Shown: positions 4,360 to 11,584 of the stretch, one piece after another
Layout of the letters: each line of letters begins with the position of its first letter
Position numbering within the stretch: the first letter of the stretch is position 1
Source: an uncultured Flavobacterium sp.
GTDB taxonomy: Bacteria > Bacteroidota > Bacteroidia > Flavobacteriales > Flavobacteriaceae
Assembly: GCA_965650235.1 (NCBI GenBank)
Contig: CBFGNY010000003.1
Coordinates: 4,520-68,519 of the forward strand
Length of the DNA stretch: 64,000 nt
Direction: 5' to 3'
The notes under the pieces: generated by a model
What the model was told of the DNA's origin: nothing
What the model saw: only the letters and a program-made list of their open reading frames with translations
Databases searched by the model: none
Position numbers and translations under genes: made by a program

Positions 4360-4446
4360 AGAGAGGTGTCCGAGTGGTTGAAGGAGCTAGCCTGGAAAGC
4401 TAGTATATGGGTAACTGTATCGAGGGTTCGAATCCCTTCCTCTCTG
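4360..4446 (+). tRNA. tRNA-Ser (GGA)
   Basis: Acceptor stem agagagg/cctctct, D-arm ccgagtggttgaagg, anticodon arm ctagc-ctGGAaa-gctag, long variable arm, T-arm gagggTTCGAAtccctt. CCA is not encoded. Confidence 0.96.
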
Positions 4447-4453
4447 CGAAATG

Positions 4454-4490
4454 ATCCCGCAATTTCATAAAATGAGATTGCGGGATTTTT
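4454..4490 (+). terminator. Intrinsic terminator after tRNA-Ser
   Basis: atcccgcaatttcat / atgagattgcgggat stem followed by a T tract. Confidence 0.8.
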
Positions 4491-4800
4491 GTTTTATGAT
4501 ATGTACTATTCTGTATTGCTGGTTGAAGTTTATTTAATATATAATATTAAAAAGATTTTTGTAAAAAGTCATATTTTACCATTAACAGGAATAGTCAATT
4601 TACAGTAATGCTATAATTTGTATTAGTTGTAAGTCCTGTAGATGTATTTTGAGCTAATTTGGGAAATGGTATATTCTTAAAGGTCAAATATCCATTCTGT
4701 TTGCCTATCGAATCAGGTAACTTTTATCTAAATTATCACTTAAGCAATAGCTTGCAGTTAATGCAATTATTGCAACTAAAAATAGTCTAATTGTTCATTA

Positions 4801-5218
4801 TTATTGATTGAAACATTTCTGATTTGAAAAAGAATTTTCTTCTTTGTAACTATTTTTCATAACGTCCCGAAAAGAGGTATTGCTCATTTCCGTTTTAAGG
4901 TCAATTTCGTTCTCATCCTCCAAATGTTCGAATCTAGGTGATAAATTAATTACTTCGCCAGTATCTCTTATTGTGTATTCGTAATGCAAGCTAGCAACTT
5001 TTTCAATTCTACCTGCCAGTTCTGTTCAATAAGTCTTGACATGTTTGTTCATTAAATGTGGAAGAGATGAAATGTGGAAGAGATGTTAGTTTTATTAGCG
5101 GTAAGATAAAACTTTCCTGTTTATTGCTCTTTACCATTGTTGTTCCGCCTTCAATTTCTAAAACAAAGAATTCTTTTCCTTCTTCTGTTTCTTTTTTTTA
5201 ACCAATAATTCTTACCAT
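4801..5218 (-). pseudogene. Decayed conserved Bacteroidota hypothetical gene (MVRII...FFVLEIEGG...YEYTIRDTGEVI type)
   Basis: Minus strand from ATG at 5218 reads MVRIIG*KKETEEGKEFFVLEIEGGTTMVKSN. After frameshifts it continues GKFYLTANKTNISSTF, NEQTCQDL and ELAGRIEKVASLHYEYTIRDTGEVINLSPRF. Lesions: in-frame TAA, short indels and a 16-bp tandem duplication. Confidence 0.7.
5054..5085. repeat. 16-bp perfect tandem duplication inside the pseudogene
   Basis: aaatgtggaagagatg twice (5054-5069, 5070-5085). Confidence 0.95.
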
Positions 5219-5458
5219 TTTTTCTTATTTTTTTGAGTTAAACATTTTTTTTGACAAAGACTTTTACTGCTTTTAGACACACAGCTATCAACTTGTGTTA
5301 TCTTATTTTGCTGGTAAAATTTGTTCTTTGTCTCTTATGTGTGGGGGGGTTGGAATTGTATCATTAATGGGGCATGGTTTACTGGGAAGTTTGAACTCTC
5401 GTTTTTTTTATTTTTATTTTCAGTTTTTTATTTTTAGTTAGTTATGTCAAAAAAAAAT

Positions 5459-5466
5459 TATCTTTG
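5459..5466 (+). promoter_or_regulatory. Bacteroidota sigma-70 -7 box for the methyltransferase operon
   Basis: TATCTTTG matches TAnnTTTG, 24 nt upstream of ATG 5491. No clean -33 TTG at the canonical spacing. Confidence 0.55.
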
Positions 5467-5490
5467 GTAAGATATTTTCCCAAATTTTTT

Positions 5491-6726
5491 ATGTCATCAT
5501 TAAACTATATAGATTTATTTGCTGGTGCTGGAGGACTCTCAGAGGGATTTGTACGAGAAGGATTTTCGCCCATTGCCCACGTTGAATATGATAAAGCAGC
5601 ATGTTTCACCTTGAAAACTCGTGTTGCCTATCACTATCTTAAGGAATCCAAAAAGGAAGAGATTTACTATTCCTATCTTAAAGGTGAAATAAACAGGTCT
5701 AAATTATATTCTTATATACCAGAGAATATTATCAATAGTGTTATTAATGCTGAAATAGGTAAAGACAATTCTGCTATTTTTAATTCAATAGATAATTCAT
5801 TACAAGGCAAAGAAGTTGATTTGATAATTGGGGGGCCTCCATGTCAAGCCTATTCTCTCGTAGGTAGGGCACCTCTTAAACATAAAAAAGATGATGAGAG
5901 GACAAAGTTATATATACAATATGGACGTTTCTTAAAAAAGTATCAGCCTAAAGTATTTGTATTTGAAAATGTACCGGGCTTGTTATCTGCTGCTGATGGC
6001 TTATATTTTAAAAATCTTAAAAAGTACTACAAAAGCCTTGGTTATAAAGTTGATGCAAAGTTGCTTAATTCTTTTAATTTTGGAGTTGTTCAGCATCGTG
6101 TCCGTGTGATAATAATTGGATGGAAGAAAGAATTGAATTTTTCATATCCTGAATTTGAGTCAACGAAAGAAAAATTTTTCCGTGATGACATATTCCTTGA
6201 TTTACCGGTAATTAAAACTGGAGAAAAAAGAATGGTTCAGAAATATGCAAAAGAGACTAATACATATCTACAGAATACAGCTATCAGAAATGGAATAGAT
6301 TTTATAACTCATCACATTACAAGACCACATAATAAAAAAGATTTAAAAATATATAGACTGGCAATTAAACAGCTTGAAAAAGGGATTCGCCTTAAAAATG
6401 ACCAAATACCTGAGGCTAACCGAACCCAAAAAAATGTAACTGATTTTCTTGATCGTTTTAAAGTTGTTGATGTGGAACCACATACTATGATTGCTCATAT
6501 TGCCAAGGACGGGCATCATTTTATACATCCAGACCTTAAGCAATTAAGATCAATTTCTGTTAGAGAAGCTGCCAGAATACAGTCCTTCCCAGATAATTTT
6601 TATTTTGAAGGAATTAAAGAAAATCAACCCCGAACAGCTGCTTTCAAACAGATTGGAAATGCAGTACCTCCATTAGTGTCTGAAAGTATTGCAAAACATA
6701 TTAAAGCAAAAATGCTAAATGAGTAG
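5491..6726 (+). CDS. dcm: DNA (cytosine-5)-methyltransferase
   Basis: All main C5-MTase motifs in order: IDLFAGAGG (I), GGPPCQAYS (IV, catalytic Cys), FENVPG (VI), QHRVRV (VIII), SVREAARIQSFP (IX), QIGNAVPP (X). ATG 5491 preferred over TTG 5464. Confidence 0.96.
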   Translation: MSSLNYIDLFAGAGGLSEGFVREGFSPIAHVEYDKAACFTLKTRVAYHYLKESKKEEIYYSYLKGEINRSKLYSYIPENIINSVINAEIGKDNSAIFNSIDNSLQGKEVDLIIGGPPCQAYSLVGRAPLKHKKDDERTKLYIQYGRFLKKYQPKVFVFENVPGLLSAADGLYFKNLKKYYKSLGYKVDAKLLNSFNFGVVQHRVRVIIIGWKKELNFSYPEFESTKEKFFRDDIFLDLPVIKTGEKRMVQKYAKETNTYLQNTAIRNGIDFITHHITRPHNKKDLKIYRLAIKQLEKGIRLKNDQIPEANRTQKNVTDFLDRFKVVDVEPHTMIAHIAKDGHHFIHPDLKQLRSISVREAARIQSFPDNFYFEGIKENQPRTAAFKQIGNAVPPLVSESIAKHIKAKMLNE

Positions 6727-8824
6727 TAAAAAAATAACCTTTGAACCGCGTGCCAGATTGCTTCTCCAATTAGGAGATCAGTTAATCCGAAATGAGAGTA
6801 TTGCATTTATGGAACTTATTAAAAACTCCTATGATGCCAATGCTTCTTTTGTTAAAGTTTACATGCGAAAAGTAAACAATAAAAAACTTGGAGAAATTGT
6901 TATTGAGGATGATGGGATAGGAATGAATATCGATATTATAACAAATATATGGATGCAACCTGGTAGTGACCATAAGTTAAAAATATTGGACTCTATTAAA
7001 AACAAATTGGATGAAAGAATGCCGATTGGAGAAAAAGGTATTGGAAGGTTTGGCGTACATAAATTAGGTTATGTAATTGAACTAACAAGTAAAATGCAAA
7101 ACGGCAAAGAAGTTTATTTTAAAATTAACTGGCGGGATTTCGAAAAGGATGATTTGCTTAAAAATATAAAGGTAAATATTGTTGAAAGAGATGAACCAGA
7201 ATACTTTGTTGATGGTATAACTGGAACACATATTGTTATAAGGGATTTAAAAGCAGAATGGAACAGAGGAACAGTTAGAGAATTATACAGGTCTGTGAAC
7301 TCCTTAGGCTCTCCTTTTGATAGCCTTAATTCTTTTAAAGTTTACTTTTCTATAGATAATCAAGAGTGGTTAACAGGATTAATGTCTTTTAAACAAATTA
7401 GAGATAATGCTCTTTATTATGCTGAGGCGACAATTGAAAATAATAAAGTTTTAAAACTAGATTATGAATTTAAGCCATGGGATACAATGTCCAAAATTGA
7501 AAGTAGGAAAGTTACGCTTGAAAATATATTAATGGTTAAAGATGTTAAAGATGAGATTACAAAAAAAACAGTTCAGGAAGAAATAAACCTTTCAACAAAT
7601 GATACTGCTATTGGAAAAATTAATTTTAAACTTTTAATTTTTGACCGTGAAAATAAAATTTTATCACTCGGAGTCTCGGATAAAAAAGGTTTTACAGGCT
7701 ATCTTGATACTAATGGAGGAATTCGCGTTTTCAGAAGTGGAATTCGGGTATATGACTATGGTGAGCAGAGCAATGATTGGTTAGGACTGGATATGATGCG
7801 TATTAATCAGCCGGGGAAAACTATTAGTAATAATATAATCATTGGAGCAATTAATTTAGACAGAAGGACTAGTAAAAGTCTTGAAGAAAAGACAAATAGG
7901 GAAGGATTCGTTGAAGATGAAGCGTATTTCAAATTTAGGGATGCCATACGTTTTACTTTAGATAAAATTTTGACTCAACGAAATATTGATAAAGAAAAGA
8001 TCCGAAAATTTTACAGCACATCCTCAGTTAGCCAGCCAGTAATTGGAAGTCTGGCAATTTTGCAGGATAAAATCATTGAAAAAGTACCAAAAAAAGACCA
8101 GGATGAACTTTTAACTTCTATCCGTACAATTGAAAATGATTACAAAATGATAAGTGATATATACATGCGAAGTTCAAGTGCTGGTTTAAGCTTGGGAATC
8201 ATTATTCACGAAGTTATACATATGATAGCAGAGCTTGTTGCAGCAGTGAAGAAGAAGCCTGTCGACAACTACATTAATGAACTAATTAAATCATTGCAAA
8301 AAACTGTCAGTGATTATGCAGGAGTTATAAAACAAAGTCCAAAAAGTAAAGAGGATTTAATAGAAGTTATAGACCAGGCACTATCCAATATACAATATAG
8401 GATTAAAGCACACGAACTTGAAATTGTAAAACAGTATAAGAAAAGAGTTAATATCAATACTTCAGTAAGATGTTCTCGTAGTTTAATAATTAGTACAATT
8501 ATAAATCTGACAGATAATTCAATATGGTGGCAAAATTATGCAAATGTTAAAACCAAAAAATTATTTGTTGATATTTTAGAAGAACCCGAAGGCTATACTT
8601 CTATTCTTATAGCTGACAATGGTCCTGGATTTACTATATCTCCCGAGGATGCAGTAAAACCATTTATTTCAGATAAACCAGGCGGAATGGGATTAGGACT
8701 TCATTTAGCTGATGAAGTTATGAGTAGTCAAAAAGGTCTTCTAATTTTCCCAGAGCCTGATGACTTTGAAATCCCTGAAGATTTTAAAAAGGGTGCTAAA
8801 ATTTTACTTTCAATAAAAAAATAA
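6719..8824 (+). CDS. MORC/HSP90-like GHKL ATPase fused to a C-terminal histidine kinase module
   Basis: N-terminal ELIKNSYDA, EDDGIGM and GEKGIGRFG. C-terminal H-box GIIIHEV (His497), N-box NLTDNS, G1 ADNGPGF, and F/G2 PFISDKPGGMGLGL. No transmembrane segment. Overlaps the dcm stop by 8 nt. Confidence 0.9.
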   Translation: MSSKKITFEPRARLLLQLGDQLIRNESIAFMELIKNSYDANASFVKVYMRKVNNKKLGEIVIEDDGIGMNIDIITNIWMQPGSDHKLKILDSIKNKLDERMPIGEKGIGRFGVHKLGYVIELTSKMQNGKEVYFKINWRDFEKDDLLKNIKVNIVERDEPEYFVDGITGTHIVIRDLKAEWNRGTVRELYRSVNSLGSPFDSLNSFKVYFSIDNQEWLTGLMSFKQIRDNALYYAEATIENNKVLKLDYEFKPWDTMSKIESRKVTLENILMVKDVKDEITKKTVQEEINLSTNDTAIGKINFKLLIFDRENKILSLGVSDKKGFTGYLDTNGGIRVFRSGIRVYDYGEQSNDWLGLDMMRINQPGKTISNNIIIGAINLDRRTSKSLEEKTNREGFVEDEAYFKFRDAIRFTLDKILTQRNIDKEKIRKFYSTSSVSQPVIGSLAILQDKIIEKVPKKDQDELLTSIRTIENDYKMISDIYMRSSSAGLSLGIIIHEVIHMIAELVAAVKKKPVDNYINELIKSLQKTVSDYAGVIKQSPKSKEDLIEVIDQALSNIQYRIKAHELEIVKQYKKRVNINTSVRCSRSLIISTIINLTDNSIWWQNYANVKTKKLFVDILEEPEGYTSILIADNGPGFTISPEDAVKPFISDKPGGMGLGLHLADEVMSSQKGLLIFPEPDDFEIPEDFKKGAKILLSIKK

Positions 8825-8829
8825 TTGAT

Positions 8830-10461
8830 ATGGCTAATTTTCAATTCCCTTCTGATGGTTCAGTTGTTATCATTGACGACGTTGTTGATGATGCATTGCC
8901 ATTAATACAACTTTTATCTCAGAGAGGAATTGCAACCACCTACTATTCTGGAAGAAGTGATAATGATTTGCCTGAAATTCCTATTCAAAAAATCAGATAC
9001 GCTTTTGTTGATATTCAATTATTTCCAGCCGGTGATGCTAATTCTTATGCTCAAAATATTAAAAGACTATTAGAGCGAATAATACCCATTAATAATGGGC
9101 CATATATATTAATGATATGGAGTACTGTTGAATGGATTCATGCAGATGCTGTAGAAGCATTGGTTTCAATGGATAACTTTGAACGGAGACCTACCGAAAT
9201 TGTCAGACTTCAGAAAGCTTCTTACTTTATAACTGAAACAGATAACAGTGTCCGTGATCAATTGATTGAAGATATTAATGAAGATATGCAGGTAAGATTT
9301 ACTGAGGAGGATGTTGAAGCGGTTAATAATTTTATAACGGATAAATTACCTCTTTATCAAAGTAAGAGACTTAAACCTAATGCTCTAAGTAATATTACTG
9401 ACAAGCTTAACGAAAAATTAAAAGGAACAAATGCCTTTCATCTCTTTATATTATGGGAAAAGTTGGTAAATAAATCATCAGGAGATATTGTAAATAACTA
9501 TTCAACTCTCCATCAAAAAAACAAATATTGGGAAGAGAATCTTAAACATAGTATTTATCGTATGGCTAAGGCTCAGTTAGGAATGACTGTTAATGAAGTA
9601 TCAGAAAATGAGTTGCTGAAGAATGCTTTAAAAACTATGAATAGTACTTTTATTGATTCTTTAGAAAACAAGCTCTCAGTATTTGATAATATTTCCTCAA
9701 CAATTAAAATTGACAAGGGCAATATTCTTTATTTGAAAGAAATTGCCGAAAATGAATATAAAATCAGGCTAAGAAACGGAAAGTACTCTTTGTTTATTAA
9801 TGGAGCAAGGATGCCTCCAGGAACAACAAATGAAGCTGCCAATATTGAAACTTTAAAGAAATGGAGTAATGGTAATCAACAAATTTTGGCTAACATTACT
9901 TCTACAATAGATGAGTTTTTATCAATTACTCCAGAGATTAACACAAAATTACTATTTGATATACTACCTCCATCCTTTATACAGCCTGGAAATGTCTTTG
10001 AAAAAGATGTGCAAAATTGGAAAAGAAGGAGGAATTTACTTGGAGATTATTTTGGACGGGAAGCCGTATCAAAAAAAAATAATCAACAACAATTTGAAAT
10101 TTCAAATGATGACTTAAGAAAAGTCATTTTTATAGAATTAGAGGTTACTCCCCTATGTGATTATGTTCAGAACAAGTGGAGAAAATCCAGATTAGTTTCT
10201 GGAGTACTCGTTCCTAAAGAATTAGAAAAAAAACTTCAAAAAAGCAATAGCCATTATTTATATGATGAGATTCCATTGGTAAAAATTAATGGACTATTAT
10301 ACAAACCTGTTATTGATTTTCGTCTTTTCAAATCAATAGATATAAAAAGAACACCTTTGGTTCAACCTCCTTTATTTAGGGTTAGAAGTGAACTTTTCGC
10401 AGATATATTATCCAGATTATCAAGTCATGCAAGTAGAGTGGGGATTGCTTATTTGGAATAA
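8830..10461 (+). CDS. Receiver (REC) domain protein with about 400 aa of unassigned C-terminal region
   Basis: VVIIDD (D16/D17), FVDIQL (D61), IWS (S98) and LQK (K129) fit the CheY-like pattern. The C-terminus has QPGNV, EVTPLCDYVQNK and SRVG but no recognisable HTH output domain. Confidence 0.75.
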   Translation: MANFQFPSDGSVVIIDDVVDDALPLIQLLSQRGIATTYYSGRSDNDLPEIPIQKIRYAFVDIQLFPAGDANSYAQNIKRLLERIIPINNGPYILMIWSTVEWIHADAVEALVSMDNFERRPTEIVRLQKASYFITETDNSVRDQLIEDINEDMQVRFTEEDVEAVNNFITDKLPLYQSKRLKPNALSNITDKLNEKLKGTNAFHLFILWEKLVNKSSGDIVNNYSTLHQKNKYWEENLKHSIYRMAKAQLGMTVNEVSENELLKNALKTMNSTFIDSLENKLSVFDNISSTIKIDKGNILYLKEIAENEYKIRLRNGKYSLFINGARMPPGTTNEAANIETLKKWSNGNQQILANITSTIDEFLSITPEINTKLLFDILPPSFIQPGNVFEKDVQNWKRRRNLLGDYFGREAVSKKNNQQQFEISNDDLRKVIFIELEVTPLCDYVQNKWRKSRLVSGVLVPKELEKKLQKSNSHYLYDEIPLVKINGLLYKPVIDFRLFKSIDIKRTPLVQPPLFRVRSELFADILSRLSSHASRVGIAYLE

Positions 10462-10464
10462 TAT

Positions 10465-11226
10465 ATGAGAAATAATTGGACACGTGAAGAGCATATAGTT
10501 GCATTCAACCTTTATTGTAAAATACCTTTTATAAAAATAAATGCTAACTATCCACCCATAAAAGAACTTGCTCAGATAATTAAAAGAACTAATGGTTCTG
10601 TTGCTATGAAACTTGCAAATTTCGCAAGACTTGATCCAGTTCAACAGGCAAGAAATGTCTCAGGATTGTCCCAAGGCGCAAAAGGTGAAGAAGAGGTTTG
10701 GAATGAGTTTGCAGAAAGTTGGGAAGAATTAGCATGGCAAAGCGAATTAATATTAGCCAAATATAAAAACAAACCTGTTGAGCAGTCAGCTGAGATTACT
10801 TTATTAAATGTACCTGAAGGAAAAGAAAGAGAAGCAACTATTAAAGCAAGAGTTAATCAAGCATTCTTCAGAAAAACAGTTCTTGCATCTTATAACCAAA
10901 GGTGCTGCATTACTGGCATTACAATGCCTGAGTTGTTGATTGCAGGACATATAATGCCCTGGTCTCATAACGTTGATAATCGTGTAAACCCTTCTAATGG
11001 ACTTTGTCTAAATGCCTTGCATGATTCAGCGTATGATAAAGGGTTAATATCCATAACCCCCGATTTTGAAATTAAACTTTCAGATAAATTGCTAAACAGT
11101 TTTAAGAAAGGTGAAACGGAATTATTTTTTTCTCCCTATGAAAATAAAAAAATAAGCTTGCCAAATAAATTTCTTCCACAAAAAGAATTTTTAGACTATC
11201 ATATCAATACTATATTTCAGAAATAA
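10465..11226 (+). CDS. HNH endonuclease (restriction-type, HNH_2-like)
   Basis: QAFFRKTVLASYNQRCCITG, LIAGHIMPW and NPSNGLCLNALHDSAYDKGLISI. The N-terminal WTREE...KLANF helical domain is typical of putative restriction HNH proteins. Confidence 0.9.
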   Translation: MRNNWTREEHIVAFNLYCKIPFIKINANYPPIKELAQIIKRTNGSVAMKLANFARLDPVQQARNVSGLSQGAKGEEEVWNEFAESWEELAWQSELILAKYKNKPVEQSAEITLLNVPEGKEREATIKARVNQAFFRKTVLASYNQRCCITGITMPELLIAGHIMPWSHNVDNRVNPSNGLCLNALHDSAYDKGLISITPDFEIKLSDKLLNSFKKGETELFFSPYENKKISLPNKFLPQKEFLDYHINTIFQK

Positions 11227-11305
11227 TACCCTCATAATTCACAACAACACTCAAAAGCATGGTTGCCATAAAAAGCACTTGTACGAAGTGCGAAAAGACC
11301 AAAAA

Positions 11306-11415
11306 TTAATCTTGCAGTGCCACTCTTAGCTTTAGGCAAAATGCGTTCTGCAAATAGCATATAAGTAGATTCAGAAGCATGTAAACCATCTGAAGCAACT
11401 AAATGAGGATTGCTG
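11306..11415 (-). pseudogene. Relic 3' end of the SGNH hydrolase gene (diverged direct repeat of 22357-22465)
   Basis: Translates SNPHLVASDGLHASESTYMLFAERILPKAK versus SNPNLVAPDGLHPSESAYMLFVERILPKAK in the intact gene. Hand alignment gives 18 mismatches plus one gap in 110 nt; the 1-nt insertion frameshifts the last codons. Confidence 0.9.
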
Positions 11416-11449
11416 GGTCGTAATTTCTCGCTTAAATGTATTAAATAAT

Positions 11450-11481
11450 AAAGCCTGCAAGTTATTAATTTGCAGGCTTTT
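11450..11481. terminator. Intrinsic terminator downstream of the PUL
   Basis: aaagcctgcaa-gttattaat-ttgcaggcttt, 11-bp stem with A/T tails. Confidence 0.75.
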
Positions 11482-11584
11482 GCTTTTAACAGTAACAAAA
11501 ACGGTTTAAAATTTAAATCGTTTTCTTTGGTACCTGCTTTTCGCAGTCAGTAGCAGGGTATTGCTAGAGAGTAGGAATCTTAAA

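Follow-up and report, generated by a model that had tools for sequence, protein, structure and literature searches.

Can an ATP-driven DNA clamp serve as the sensor of a histidine kinase? The question was raised by a gene in a 64,000-nucleotide stretch of DNA from an uncultured Flavobacterium sp. (contig CBFGNY010000003.1, positions 4,520 to 68,519 of the forward strand; hereafter the window). This gene encodes the protein P0001 and stands in a row of four, between a C5 cytosine methylase gene and a gene for a receiver protein (P0003, hereafter REC-X), the last of the row encoding an HNH nuclease (P0004). Our analysis confirmed that P0001 is a single soluble polypeptide in which an ATPase of the DNA-clamp type is fused to a histidine kinase. 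The explanation that we favour, and consider moderately probable, is a clamp-sensor phosphorelay in a mobile defence operon resembling restriction-modification (R-M) systems. Coordinates of the features are listed in Table 1.

The original prediction had placed two complete GHKL ATP-binding modules in this single polypeptide, and this was borne out by Pfam: HATPase_c_3 (PF13589) matched residues 28–152 (E 9.8e-17, 61.7 bits against a cut-off of 25) and HATPase_c (PF02518) matched residues 592–673 (E 2.3e-10, exceeding the curated cut-off). Every motif quoted there was present in the P0001 translation at the assigned residues. These were ELIKNSYDA (32–40), DDGIG (64–68) and GEKGIGRFG (104–112) at the N-terminal ATP site; RVFRSGIRVYDYG (336–348, from R336 to G348) and KTNREGF (391–397) in the middle region; and IIHEV (495–499, containing H497), NLTDNS (596–601), DNGPG (633–637) and GMGLGL (656–661) in the kinase half. 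Pfam HisKA gave no score on P0001, and local alignments with NCBIfam models matched residues ~497–675 to the dimerisation and histidine-phosphotransfer (DHp) plus catalytic and ATP-binding (CA) regions of TtrS, AtoS and PrsK. No further domain was found in P0001 by the Pfam scan. The sole strongly hydrophobic 19-mer (residues 492–510, Kyte-Doolittle 1.91) was the H-box helix, indicating that P0001 is soluble and carries no classical sensor, so that the predicted lack of a sensor or membrane domain holds.

Table 1. Positions of P0001, its domains and the surrounding features in the window
Feature	Coordinates	Strand	Basis
P0001, soluble fusion of a GHL-clamp-type ATPase and a histidine kinase, 701 aa	6719..8824	+	open reading frame
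N-terminal GHKL ATP-binding domain of P0001, residues 28-152 (E32/N36/D39, D64xGxG68, G104xKGxGR110)	6800..7174	+	Pfam HATPase_c_3
Transducer of P0001, S5-like middle domain, residues ~153-400	7175..7918	+	AlphaFold2 model, Foldseek, conservation
Helical linker of P0001 (401-487) and DHp-like hairpin with H497-E498	7919..8338	+	DSSP of AlphaFold2 model, conservation, hhalign
Kinase CA domain of P0001, residues ~541-701 (N596xxDN600, D633xGxG637, G656xGxGL661)	8339..8824	+	Pfam HATPase_c, NCBIfam, conservation
Receiver protein REC-X (P0003), 543 aa	8830..10461	+	AlphaFold2 fold, conserved residues
C5 cytosine DNA methyltransferase, 411 aa from ATG 5491	5491..6726	+	Pfam DNA_methylase, E 1.3e-66
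HNH_2 nuclease (P0004), 253 aa	10465..11226	+	Pfam HNH_2, E 5.4e-12
tRNA-Ser(GGA), left border of low-GC island	4360..4447	+	ARAGORN
Terminator-like hairpin, 14-bp stem, first on + strand after the four genes	11450..11480	+	probable operon end

A word-indexed search returned more than 4,600 relatives of P0001, and 768 homologues at E<=1e-30 were found by an exhaustive search of 50%-identity cluster representatives. The best 120 relatives were all about 700 aa long, carried both Pfam domains and came from many phyla. Conservation was scored in an alignment of P0001 with 100 diverse full-length representatives (29–46% identical), i.e. 101 sequences. At the clamp ATP site E32, N36, D39, D64, K106 and R110 were each present in 101/101, and the residues of the N-terminal motifs in 99–101/101. 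R343 and R394 of the transducer were kept in 100/101 and K391 in 92/101, the pair D353-W354 being near-invariant too. The H-box histidine H497 was present in 99/101 and was followed at position 498 by Glu (88 sequences) or Asp (7), i.e. by an acidic residue in 95/101. The kinase ATP site was as well kept, with N600 in 101/101, N596 and D633 in 100/101, and the glycines of the G1 and G2 boxes in 96–99/101. Together with the number of homologues, this conservation goes far beyond chance. It indicated purifying selection on both nucleotide sites and on the phospho-acceptor His. The Thr/Asn phosphatase motif at H+4 was absent, position 501 being K, R or H. The H, N, G1 and G2 boxes of classical histidine kinases, a DHp hairpin and a cognate Asp-bearing receiver were all found for P0001; what had been read as an H-box followed by a second GHKL set is a C-terminal half with intact H-box and CA domain. 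Two of the relatives, P0242 and P0331, had Trp at nine otherwise invariant Gly columns and contained 6% Trp and 1–2% Gly, against 1% Trp and 6% Gly in P0001; these are likely genes using UGA for Gly (code 25) that were translated with UGA as Trp.

An AlphaFold2 (AF2) model of P0001, made from a 36-sequence alignment, had a mean predicted local distance difference test score (pLDDT) of 75. It was laid out as an alpha/beta GHKL domain, a mixed beta middle region up to residue ~400, long helices at 401–487, a DHp-like hairpin (helices 492–512 and 517–539) and an alpha/beta CA domain. H497 (codon 8207–8209) sat at the start of the first hairpin helix. The low-confidence stretches were residues 479–497 and 639–659, the latter being the ATP lid. 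Foldseek against the PDB aligned the N-terminal ~480 residues with the N and M domains of TRAP1/Hsp90 (E 5.5e-12) and with the MORC2 ATPase with DNA (9cdj; E 2.9e-11, root-mean-square deviation (rmsd) 6.8 Å over 478 columns). The SMCHD1 ATPase module was also among the best matches, E values over these folds ranging from 5e-12 to 6e-10. The MORC/MutL-type GHKL plus S5 module of the original prediction was thus supported at the level of the fold, and the model supports describing the N-terminal half more exactly as a GHL-type ATPase with its transducer. The restriction enzymes BbrUII/HgiDII (NCBIfam NF050001) shared only the N-terminal GHKL region: residues 16–194 of P0001 were matched with E 9e-20, but by the first 184 of 659 profile positions and with 70.7 bits against a cut-off of 550, the remainder being unrelated.

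A cognate receiver for this kinase was found directly downstream. The AF2 model of REC-X (pLDDT 85, predicted template-modelling score 0.76) was searched whole, and 50 of the 50 top fold matches in the PDB were receiver (REC) domains of response regulators (PorX, FixJ, PhoB, PmrA, CheY); receiver-only matches covered 117–135 columns at rmsd 4.4–5.8 Å. The REC domain (residues ~1–130) contained an acidic pair (D16/D17), an invariant D61 where beta3 ends, S98 following beta4 and an invariant K129. Pfam Response_reg gave no score on REC-X of the window and matched its homologue on a Campylobacter plasmid (E 2.4e-5). Such a pattern of kept residues in kinase and REC domain would be expected only under selection for catalysis and phospho-acceptance.

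The remaining ~400 residues of REC-X had no match in PDB, BFVD, Pfam or NCBIfam. Neither P0003 nor the family profile gave a credible match when the PDB was searched by sequence, the BFVD fold search with the whole model returned nothing convincing, and a helix-turn-helix (HTH) was found by none of Pfam, NCBIfam, PDB sequence search and fold search. A Pfam scan of 31 REC-X relatives gave no family common to more than two members. Sixty relatives, lying on the same contigs as members of the kinase family, were all annotated as “hypothetical” and carried no Pfam domain. This output region was nevertheless marked by invariant residues, namely P441-x-C443-D444, R454, G458 and a C-terminal H533-x-x-R536-x-G538. 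In versions down to 340 aa a conserved core was still present, comprising W209-E210, N371, P386-G387, E-x-x-P441-x-C443-D444-Y-x-Q-x-K449, G458 and R536-x-G538. The length of REC-X did not predict a downstream nuclease, HNH genes occurring with long and short forms.

Loci of the P0001 family were found in at least 573 species genomes of Bacteria and Archaea, one genome being scanned per species. Gene order was analysed in the best 80 of these loci and the window, 81 in all. A receiver gene lay directly 3′ of the kinase gene in 79/81, mostly with a gap of −4 to +8 nt; the two exceptions were a contig end and a Cenarchaeum locus. Dcm was present in 72/81 loci and lay directly upstream, on the same strand, in 61/81. 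The conserved unit is a methylase-kinase-receiver trio, which is mobile and accompanied by defence genes.

The fourth gene was variable and encoded an HNH, HhH-GPD, Vsr, NOV_C or AspBHI-like Mrr protein. P0004-like HNH genes were present in 16/81 loci, including every complete locus of the closest clade. Pfam matches downstream of the receiver gene were HhH-GPD glycosylase (8), Vsr (4) and NOV_C, and an AspBHI-like SRA/Mrr enzyme, a second HATPase_c_3 protein and DUF2971 were also seen there. Upstream of the methylase gene, Vsr (22), HTH_3 and AIPR plus DUF4420 were found. DUF4420 (PD-(D/E)XK) and AIPR preceded the trio at L040, L046, L049 and L017 (some Paenibacillus, Lutibacter and Daejeonella), and these neighbours join the trio to the known Dcm/AIPR/DUF4420 defence-island cassette. 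At two other loci (L013 and L015), whose operons start with a C5 methylase gene, an AspBHI-like enzyme (RE_AspBHI_N plus Mrr_cat) was encoded 3–11 nt after the receiver gene. AspBHI is 5-methylcytosine (5mC)-dependent, so this pairing with a C5 methylase would be self-toxic unless it is gated or the two have different specificities.

The HNH nuclease of the window was matched over its full length by the PADLOC model PDLC04132 “HNH” (1.6e-87). Its HNH core matched PDB 6yex, an “HNH endonuclease” (9.2e-11), which is the 5mC-dependent EVE-HNH enzyme VcaM4I; in the same search TagI, a modification-dependent enzyme, gave a non-significant E of 0.64. P0004 is predicted to be an HNH nuclease of the modification-dependent type.

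Members of the P0001 family were also found on 84 plasmid records, of which 58 were conjugative and 41 came from Campylobacter; carriers of the conjugative plasmids were Campylobacter, Agrobacterium and Burkholderia. On the conjugative Campylobacter plasmids (~50–60 kb) the trio, with a receiver of 340 aa and no dedicated nuclease, lay between type IV secretion genes and toxin-antitoxin pairs. The Campylobacter coli plasmid pCCDM224L (L093) carried only the kinase, a 340-aa receiver and Dcm, with no dedicated nuclease, and a Burkholderia glumae plasmid carried kinase, receiver and Dcm plus Vsr only. Such trios without a dedicated restriction nuclease point to REC-X as the core effector. A close orthologue of P0001 was present in 1 of 150 other Flavobacterium genomes searched.

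The original prediction had treated the architecture of P0001 as unknown. It had in fact been published in silico in 2021, when soluble HATPase_c_3+HEF_HK+HATPase_c proteins (“group 1”) were described, with Kordiimonas lacus among the examples (Bellieny-Rabelo, Pretorius & Moleleki 2021, Genome Biol Evol, PMC8011034). In that work a receiver-like gene (Response_reg_2) accompanied 91.6% of the HEF_HK proteins, and C5 methylase genes stood upstream with HNH_2 or Vsr in the vicinity, Flavobacterium being included; the proteins were proposed to form a cytoplasmic two-component system that is connected with R-M and descends from paraMORCs (PMC8011034). P0001 is likewise a soluble protein with HATPase_c_3, H-box and HATPase_c, preceded by a C5 methylase gene and followed by a receiver gene. 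Alignment of the P0001 family with bona fide HEF_HK proteins by hhalign gave a probability of 100% and E 7e-41 over 654 columns, placing H497-E498 on the HE of “HEF”, and BLAST gave three collinear blocks. The two differ in length, the P0001 family having ~700 aa and HEF_HK proteins of Bacteroidota ~950–1,000 aa, with ~270 extra residues between transducer and DHp.

The Pfam model PF19191 (HEF_HK) had no match in the window's genome even at E<=10, nor on 7 relatives of P0001, and neither it nor PF19192 (Response_reg_2) matched any of 10 relatives tested, among them a Kordiimonas protein, for which the published K. lacus example had led us to expect a match. PF19192 also had no match in the window's genome or on REC-X relatives. 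The end-to-end homology together with the length difference indicated that P0001 belongs to a shorter sister clade of the published kind. Judged by sequence comparison, this clade is homologous to HEF_HK from end to end and is missed by the Pfam models.

For the receiver the relationship was less close. In one Flavobacterium HEF_HK locus, Dcm was followed by a kinase of 967 aa and this by a Response_reg_2 protein of 575 aa. Whole-length hhalign of REC-X with Response_reg_2 proteins was weak, and an alignment of the C-terminal parts gave a probability of 31% (E 5e-4). REC-X and a Response_reg_2 protein (L090:4535-6262, minus strand) both had an invariant C-D motif after a beta strand and both ended in H-x-x-R-x-G-[IV]-x-F. 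The two may share an unclassified effector domain. REC-X would have the same role as Response_reg_2, with a receiver family that is different or very divergent.

What could the clamp sense? In P0001 it occupies the position where kinases usually carry their sensor. An EcoRII-N domain, which is the site-specific DNA-binding effector domain of EcoRII, was fused N-terminal to the clamp in three relatives (P0075, P0078 and P0202). Other N-terminal extensions were 130–240 aa long and unclassified, and one was TPR-like; as the extensions vary, the input may differ between branches. The clamp fold, the near-obligate methylase linkage and the EcoRII-N fusions point to DNA as the sensed cue, and the cue of P0001 could also be something other than DNA. 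The proposal that the clamp itself is the kinase input is plausible, and gains support from the EcoRII-N fusions.

In the favoured phosphorelay, the GHKL domain and transducer of P0001 would form a paraMORC/Hsp90-type ATP-driven clamp that replaces the sensor domain, and a DHp four-helix bundle would replace the constitutive C-terminal dimerisation domain of GHL clamps. The ligand would most likely be DNA without the operon's own cytosine methylation, or DNA otherwise associated with an invader. ATP-dependent closure of the clamp on this ligand would be passed through the helical linker to the DHp, and the CA domain would phosphorylate H497. The phosphoryl group would move from H497 to D61 of REC-X, and this would switch on the unclassified effector domain at the C-terminus of REC-X, the HNH nuclease whose gene begins 3 nt further downstream, or both. 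Self DNA would be marked by the methylase. The operon of methylase, kinase, receiver and nuclease is mobile and probably defends against phages.

Parts of this scheme have precedents. Prokaryotic paraMORCs were proposed to act in R-M with cytosine methylases, Vsr and HNH (Iyer, Abhiman & Aravind 2008, PMC2292703), and among them paraMORC1 has an extension at its C-terminus that is conserved and distinct, and is HNH-linked (PMC2292703); we would guess that paraMORC1 may overlap the P0001 family. GHKL-clamp ATPases are found in defence in VcSduA/paraMORC3-Shedu (PMC12137116) and Tiamat (bioRxiv 10.64898/2026.09.30.754977). MORC and paraMORC proteins resemble P0001 in the N-terminal GHKL domain and transducer, in linkage to methylase, Vsr and HNH, and in a sporadic, laterally mobile distribution. 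They and Tiamat differ in that the clamp is followed by a nuclease or other effector, or has helicase partners, whereas in P0001 it is followed by DHp and CA with a separate receiver. In Detocs, the kinase His and receiver Asp are both required and a receiver is fused to a non-DNA-binding enzymatic effector (bioRxiv 10.1101/2023.01.24.525353). The likeness to the proposed model, for which no homology is claimed, is that a His-Asp relay drives a non-transcriptional immune effector; Detocs differs in its TPR-based sensor, PNP ATP nucleosidase effector and buffer receiver, and in having neither methylase nor GHL clamp. In a figure legend of DefensePredictor, a HATPase/REC system is listed among the predicted, non-validated systems.

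The operon also has a parallel in Ambrosia (AbrR-AbrA-AbrB-AbrC-AbrD) of Pseudomonas aeruginosa, whose parts are a regulator of the XRE type, an N6 methylase, a sensor histidine kinase/Hsp90-like HATPase, a REC protein and an HNH nuclease resembling type IV; all are needed for anti-phage defence, and a D60A mutation in REC abolishes it (bioRxiv 10.1101/2025.09.30.679545). Compared by functional parts list, Ambrosia and the window's operon both hold a methyltransferase, a HATPase kinase, a REC protein and an HNH nuclease in one cluster. They differ in the methylase, which is of the N6-adenine type in Ambrosia and of the C5 type in the window, in the XRE regulator, which the window's operon lacks, and in the REC protein, which in Ambrosia is reported to carry a winged HTH, whereas no HTH was detected in REC-X.

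Several points weigh against the favoured phosphorelay. The linker/DHp region of the AF2 model is weak (pLDDT below 50 at 479–497), and no DNA-binding, nuclease or toxin fold was assigned to the output domain of REC-X. An HNH nuclease of the modification-dependent type fits poorly with a scheme in which unmethylated DNA is cut. PADLOC had no model for P0001 and gave only a chance-level HEC-02B match for P0003, and no paper with an experiment on the P0001 family was found in the literature. In Ambrosia, methylation by AbrA gave phage no protection, and its authors favour transcriptional gating, not methylation readout (bioRxiv 10.1101/2025.09.30.679545).

A more far-reaching form of the phosphorelay can be put forward only tentatively. 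Here the trio would by itself be a complete “signalling restriction” system, in which the MORC-like clamp reads methylation at the methylase site and emits a His-to-Asp signal instead of cutting. The output domain of REC-X would be a new phospho-activated nuclease or toxin, and the genes for HNH, NOV_C, Mrr-like proteins and glycosylases would be accessories that can be swapped for one another.

Transcriptional gating of the Ambrosia type is an unlikely explanation for the window's operon. The kinase would sense infection by a cue other than the methylation state of DNA, the phospho-receiver would raise expression of the operon, and a modification-dependent HNH would act on DNA that the operon has itself marked with m5C, so that the methylase would not be self-protecting. 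The four functions shared with Ambrosia (methyltransferase, HATPase kinase, REC and type IV HNH) speak for it, as do the lack of phage protection by AbrA methylation, the similarity of the P0004 core to 6yex (VcaM4I) and an HTH_3 gene resembling a C protein upstream in some relatives. Ambrosia reporters were moreover induced on infection (bioRxiv 10.1101/2025.09.30.679545). However, REC-X showed neither an HTH nor any other DNA-binding domain in searches by Pfam, NCBIfam, PDB sequence and fold. Translational coupling joins the four genes, with the methylase first, and leaves no obvious separately regulated unit, the window's island has no XRE gene, and HNH accompanies the trio in a minority of loci (16/81).

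Upkeep of cytosine methylation is a very improbable role. The MutL-like clamp and its relay would aid or regulate T:G repair after 5mC deamination together with Vsr or HhH-GPD, or would control the methylase. Escherichia coli MutL stimulates Vsr, and Vsr (22 upstream, 4 downstream) and HhH-GPD (8) were frequent neighbours; some plasmid loci, moreover, had no dedicated restriction nuclease (Campylobacter none, Burkholderia Vsr only). But Vsr and glycosylases go with Dcm genes generally, so that the methylase alone explains them, the window carries HNH and not Vsr, and the module is sporadic and island- or plasmid-borne, beside genes of the defence-island kind (AIPR, DUF4420, Mrr-like and HNH). 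Least probable is a kinase-like half that acts only as the dimerisation and ATP-binding scaffold of a restriction ATPase, with a pseudo-receiver adaptor and no phosphotransfer: GHL clamps do require a C-terminal dimerisation domain, the Pfam models HisKA, HEF_HK and Response_reg give no score on proteins of the window and the H+4 phosphatase motif is absent, but H497 (99/101), the acidic residue 498 (95/101), N596, N600, D633 and the G-boxes (96–101/101) are kept, as are D61 and K129 (invariant), the acidic pair and S98 of the receiver, and D60A abolishes Ambrosia defence.

If the favoured phosphorelay is correct, P0001 would show clearly how a DNA clamp driven by ATP can be coupled directly to a histidine kinase. 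Sensing of a DNA state would be turned into a diffusible phosphoryl signal, whereas in classical restriction recognition and cleavage are in one complex. The family concerned is a large one, with members in at least 573 species genomes of Bacteria and Archaea and 768 clusters when grouped at 50% identity, and its receiver protein brings an output region of ~400 residues without a known relative. The principle itself dates from the 2021 proposal and received partial validation in 2025; what the finding offers in practice is a gap in annotation and a test system amenable to biochemistry, not a new principle.

In the window, the four genes formed a tightly coupled operon. The end of the methylase gene overlapped the start of the kinase gene by 8 nt, and the gaps were 5 nt between kinase and receiver and 3 nt between receiver and HNH. 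The methylase matched NCBIfam dcm (6.9e-56), and its best PADLOC model was DrmMII (1e-158). Its listed open reading frame (ORF) started at TTG 5464; ATG 5491 precedes the FAGAGG motif. No terminator-like site was found on the + strand between 4487 and 11450, and a sigma-70 promoter scan, with a consensus unsuited to Bacteroidota, gave no more sites than in shuffled sequences.

The operon lay in an island of low GC (guanine plus cytosine) content, ~0.29–0.33 (about 0.31) at 4500–11000, against ~0.36–0.38 before and ~0.40 after. Beyond the tRNA-Ser gene a strong terminator-like hairpin was present at 4453–4487. The ~1 kb at 4448–5490 was AT-rich (GC ~0.29), with a tandem 16-nt repeat (5051–5082) and poly-T/poly-A runs. 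The sole ORF between the tRNA-Ser and methylase genes encoded 62 aa without a Pfam match; no integrase ORF was found in that interval and no XRE gene between 4450 and 5491, and a search for direct repeats turned up none of att type at the borders of the island. An 88-aa ORF on the minus strand (11232–11498), with no Pfam match, overlapped the hairpin at the probable end of the operon. The operon block as a whole was flanked by housekeeping genes and a GH30/SusD polysaccharide locus.

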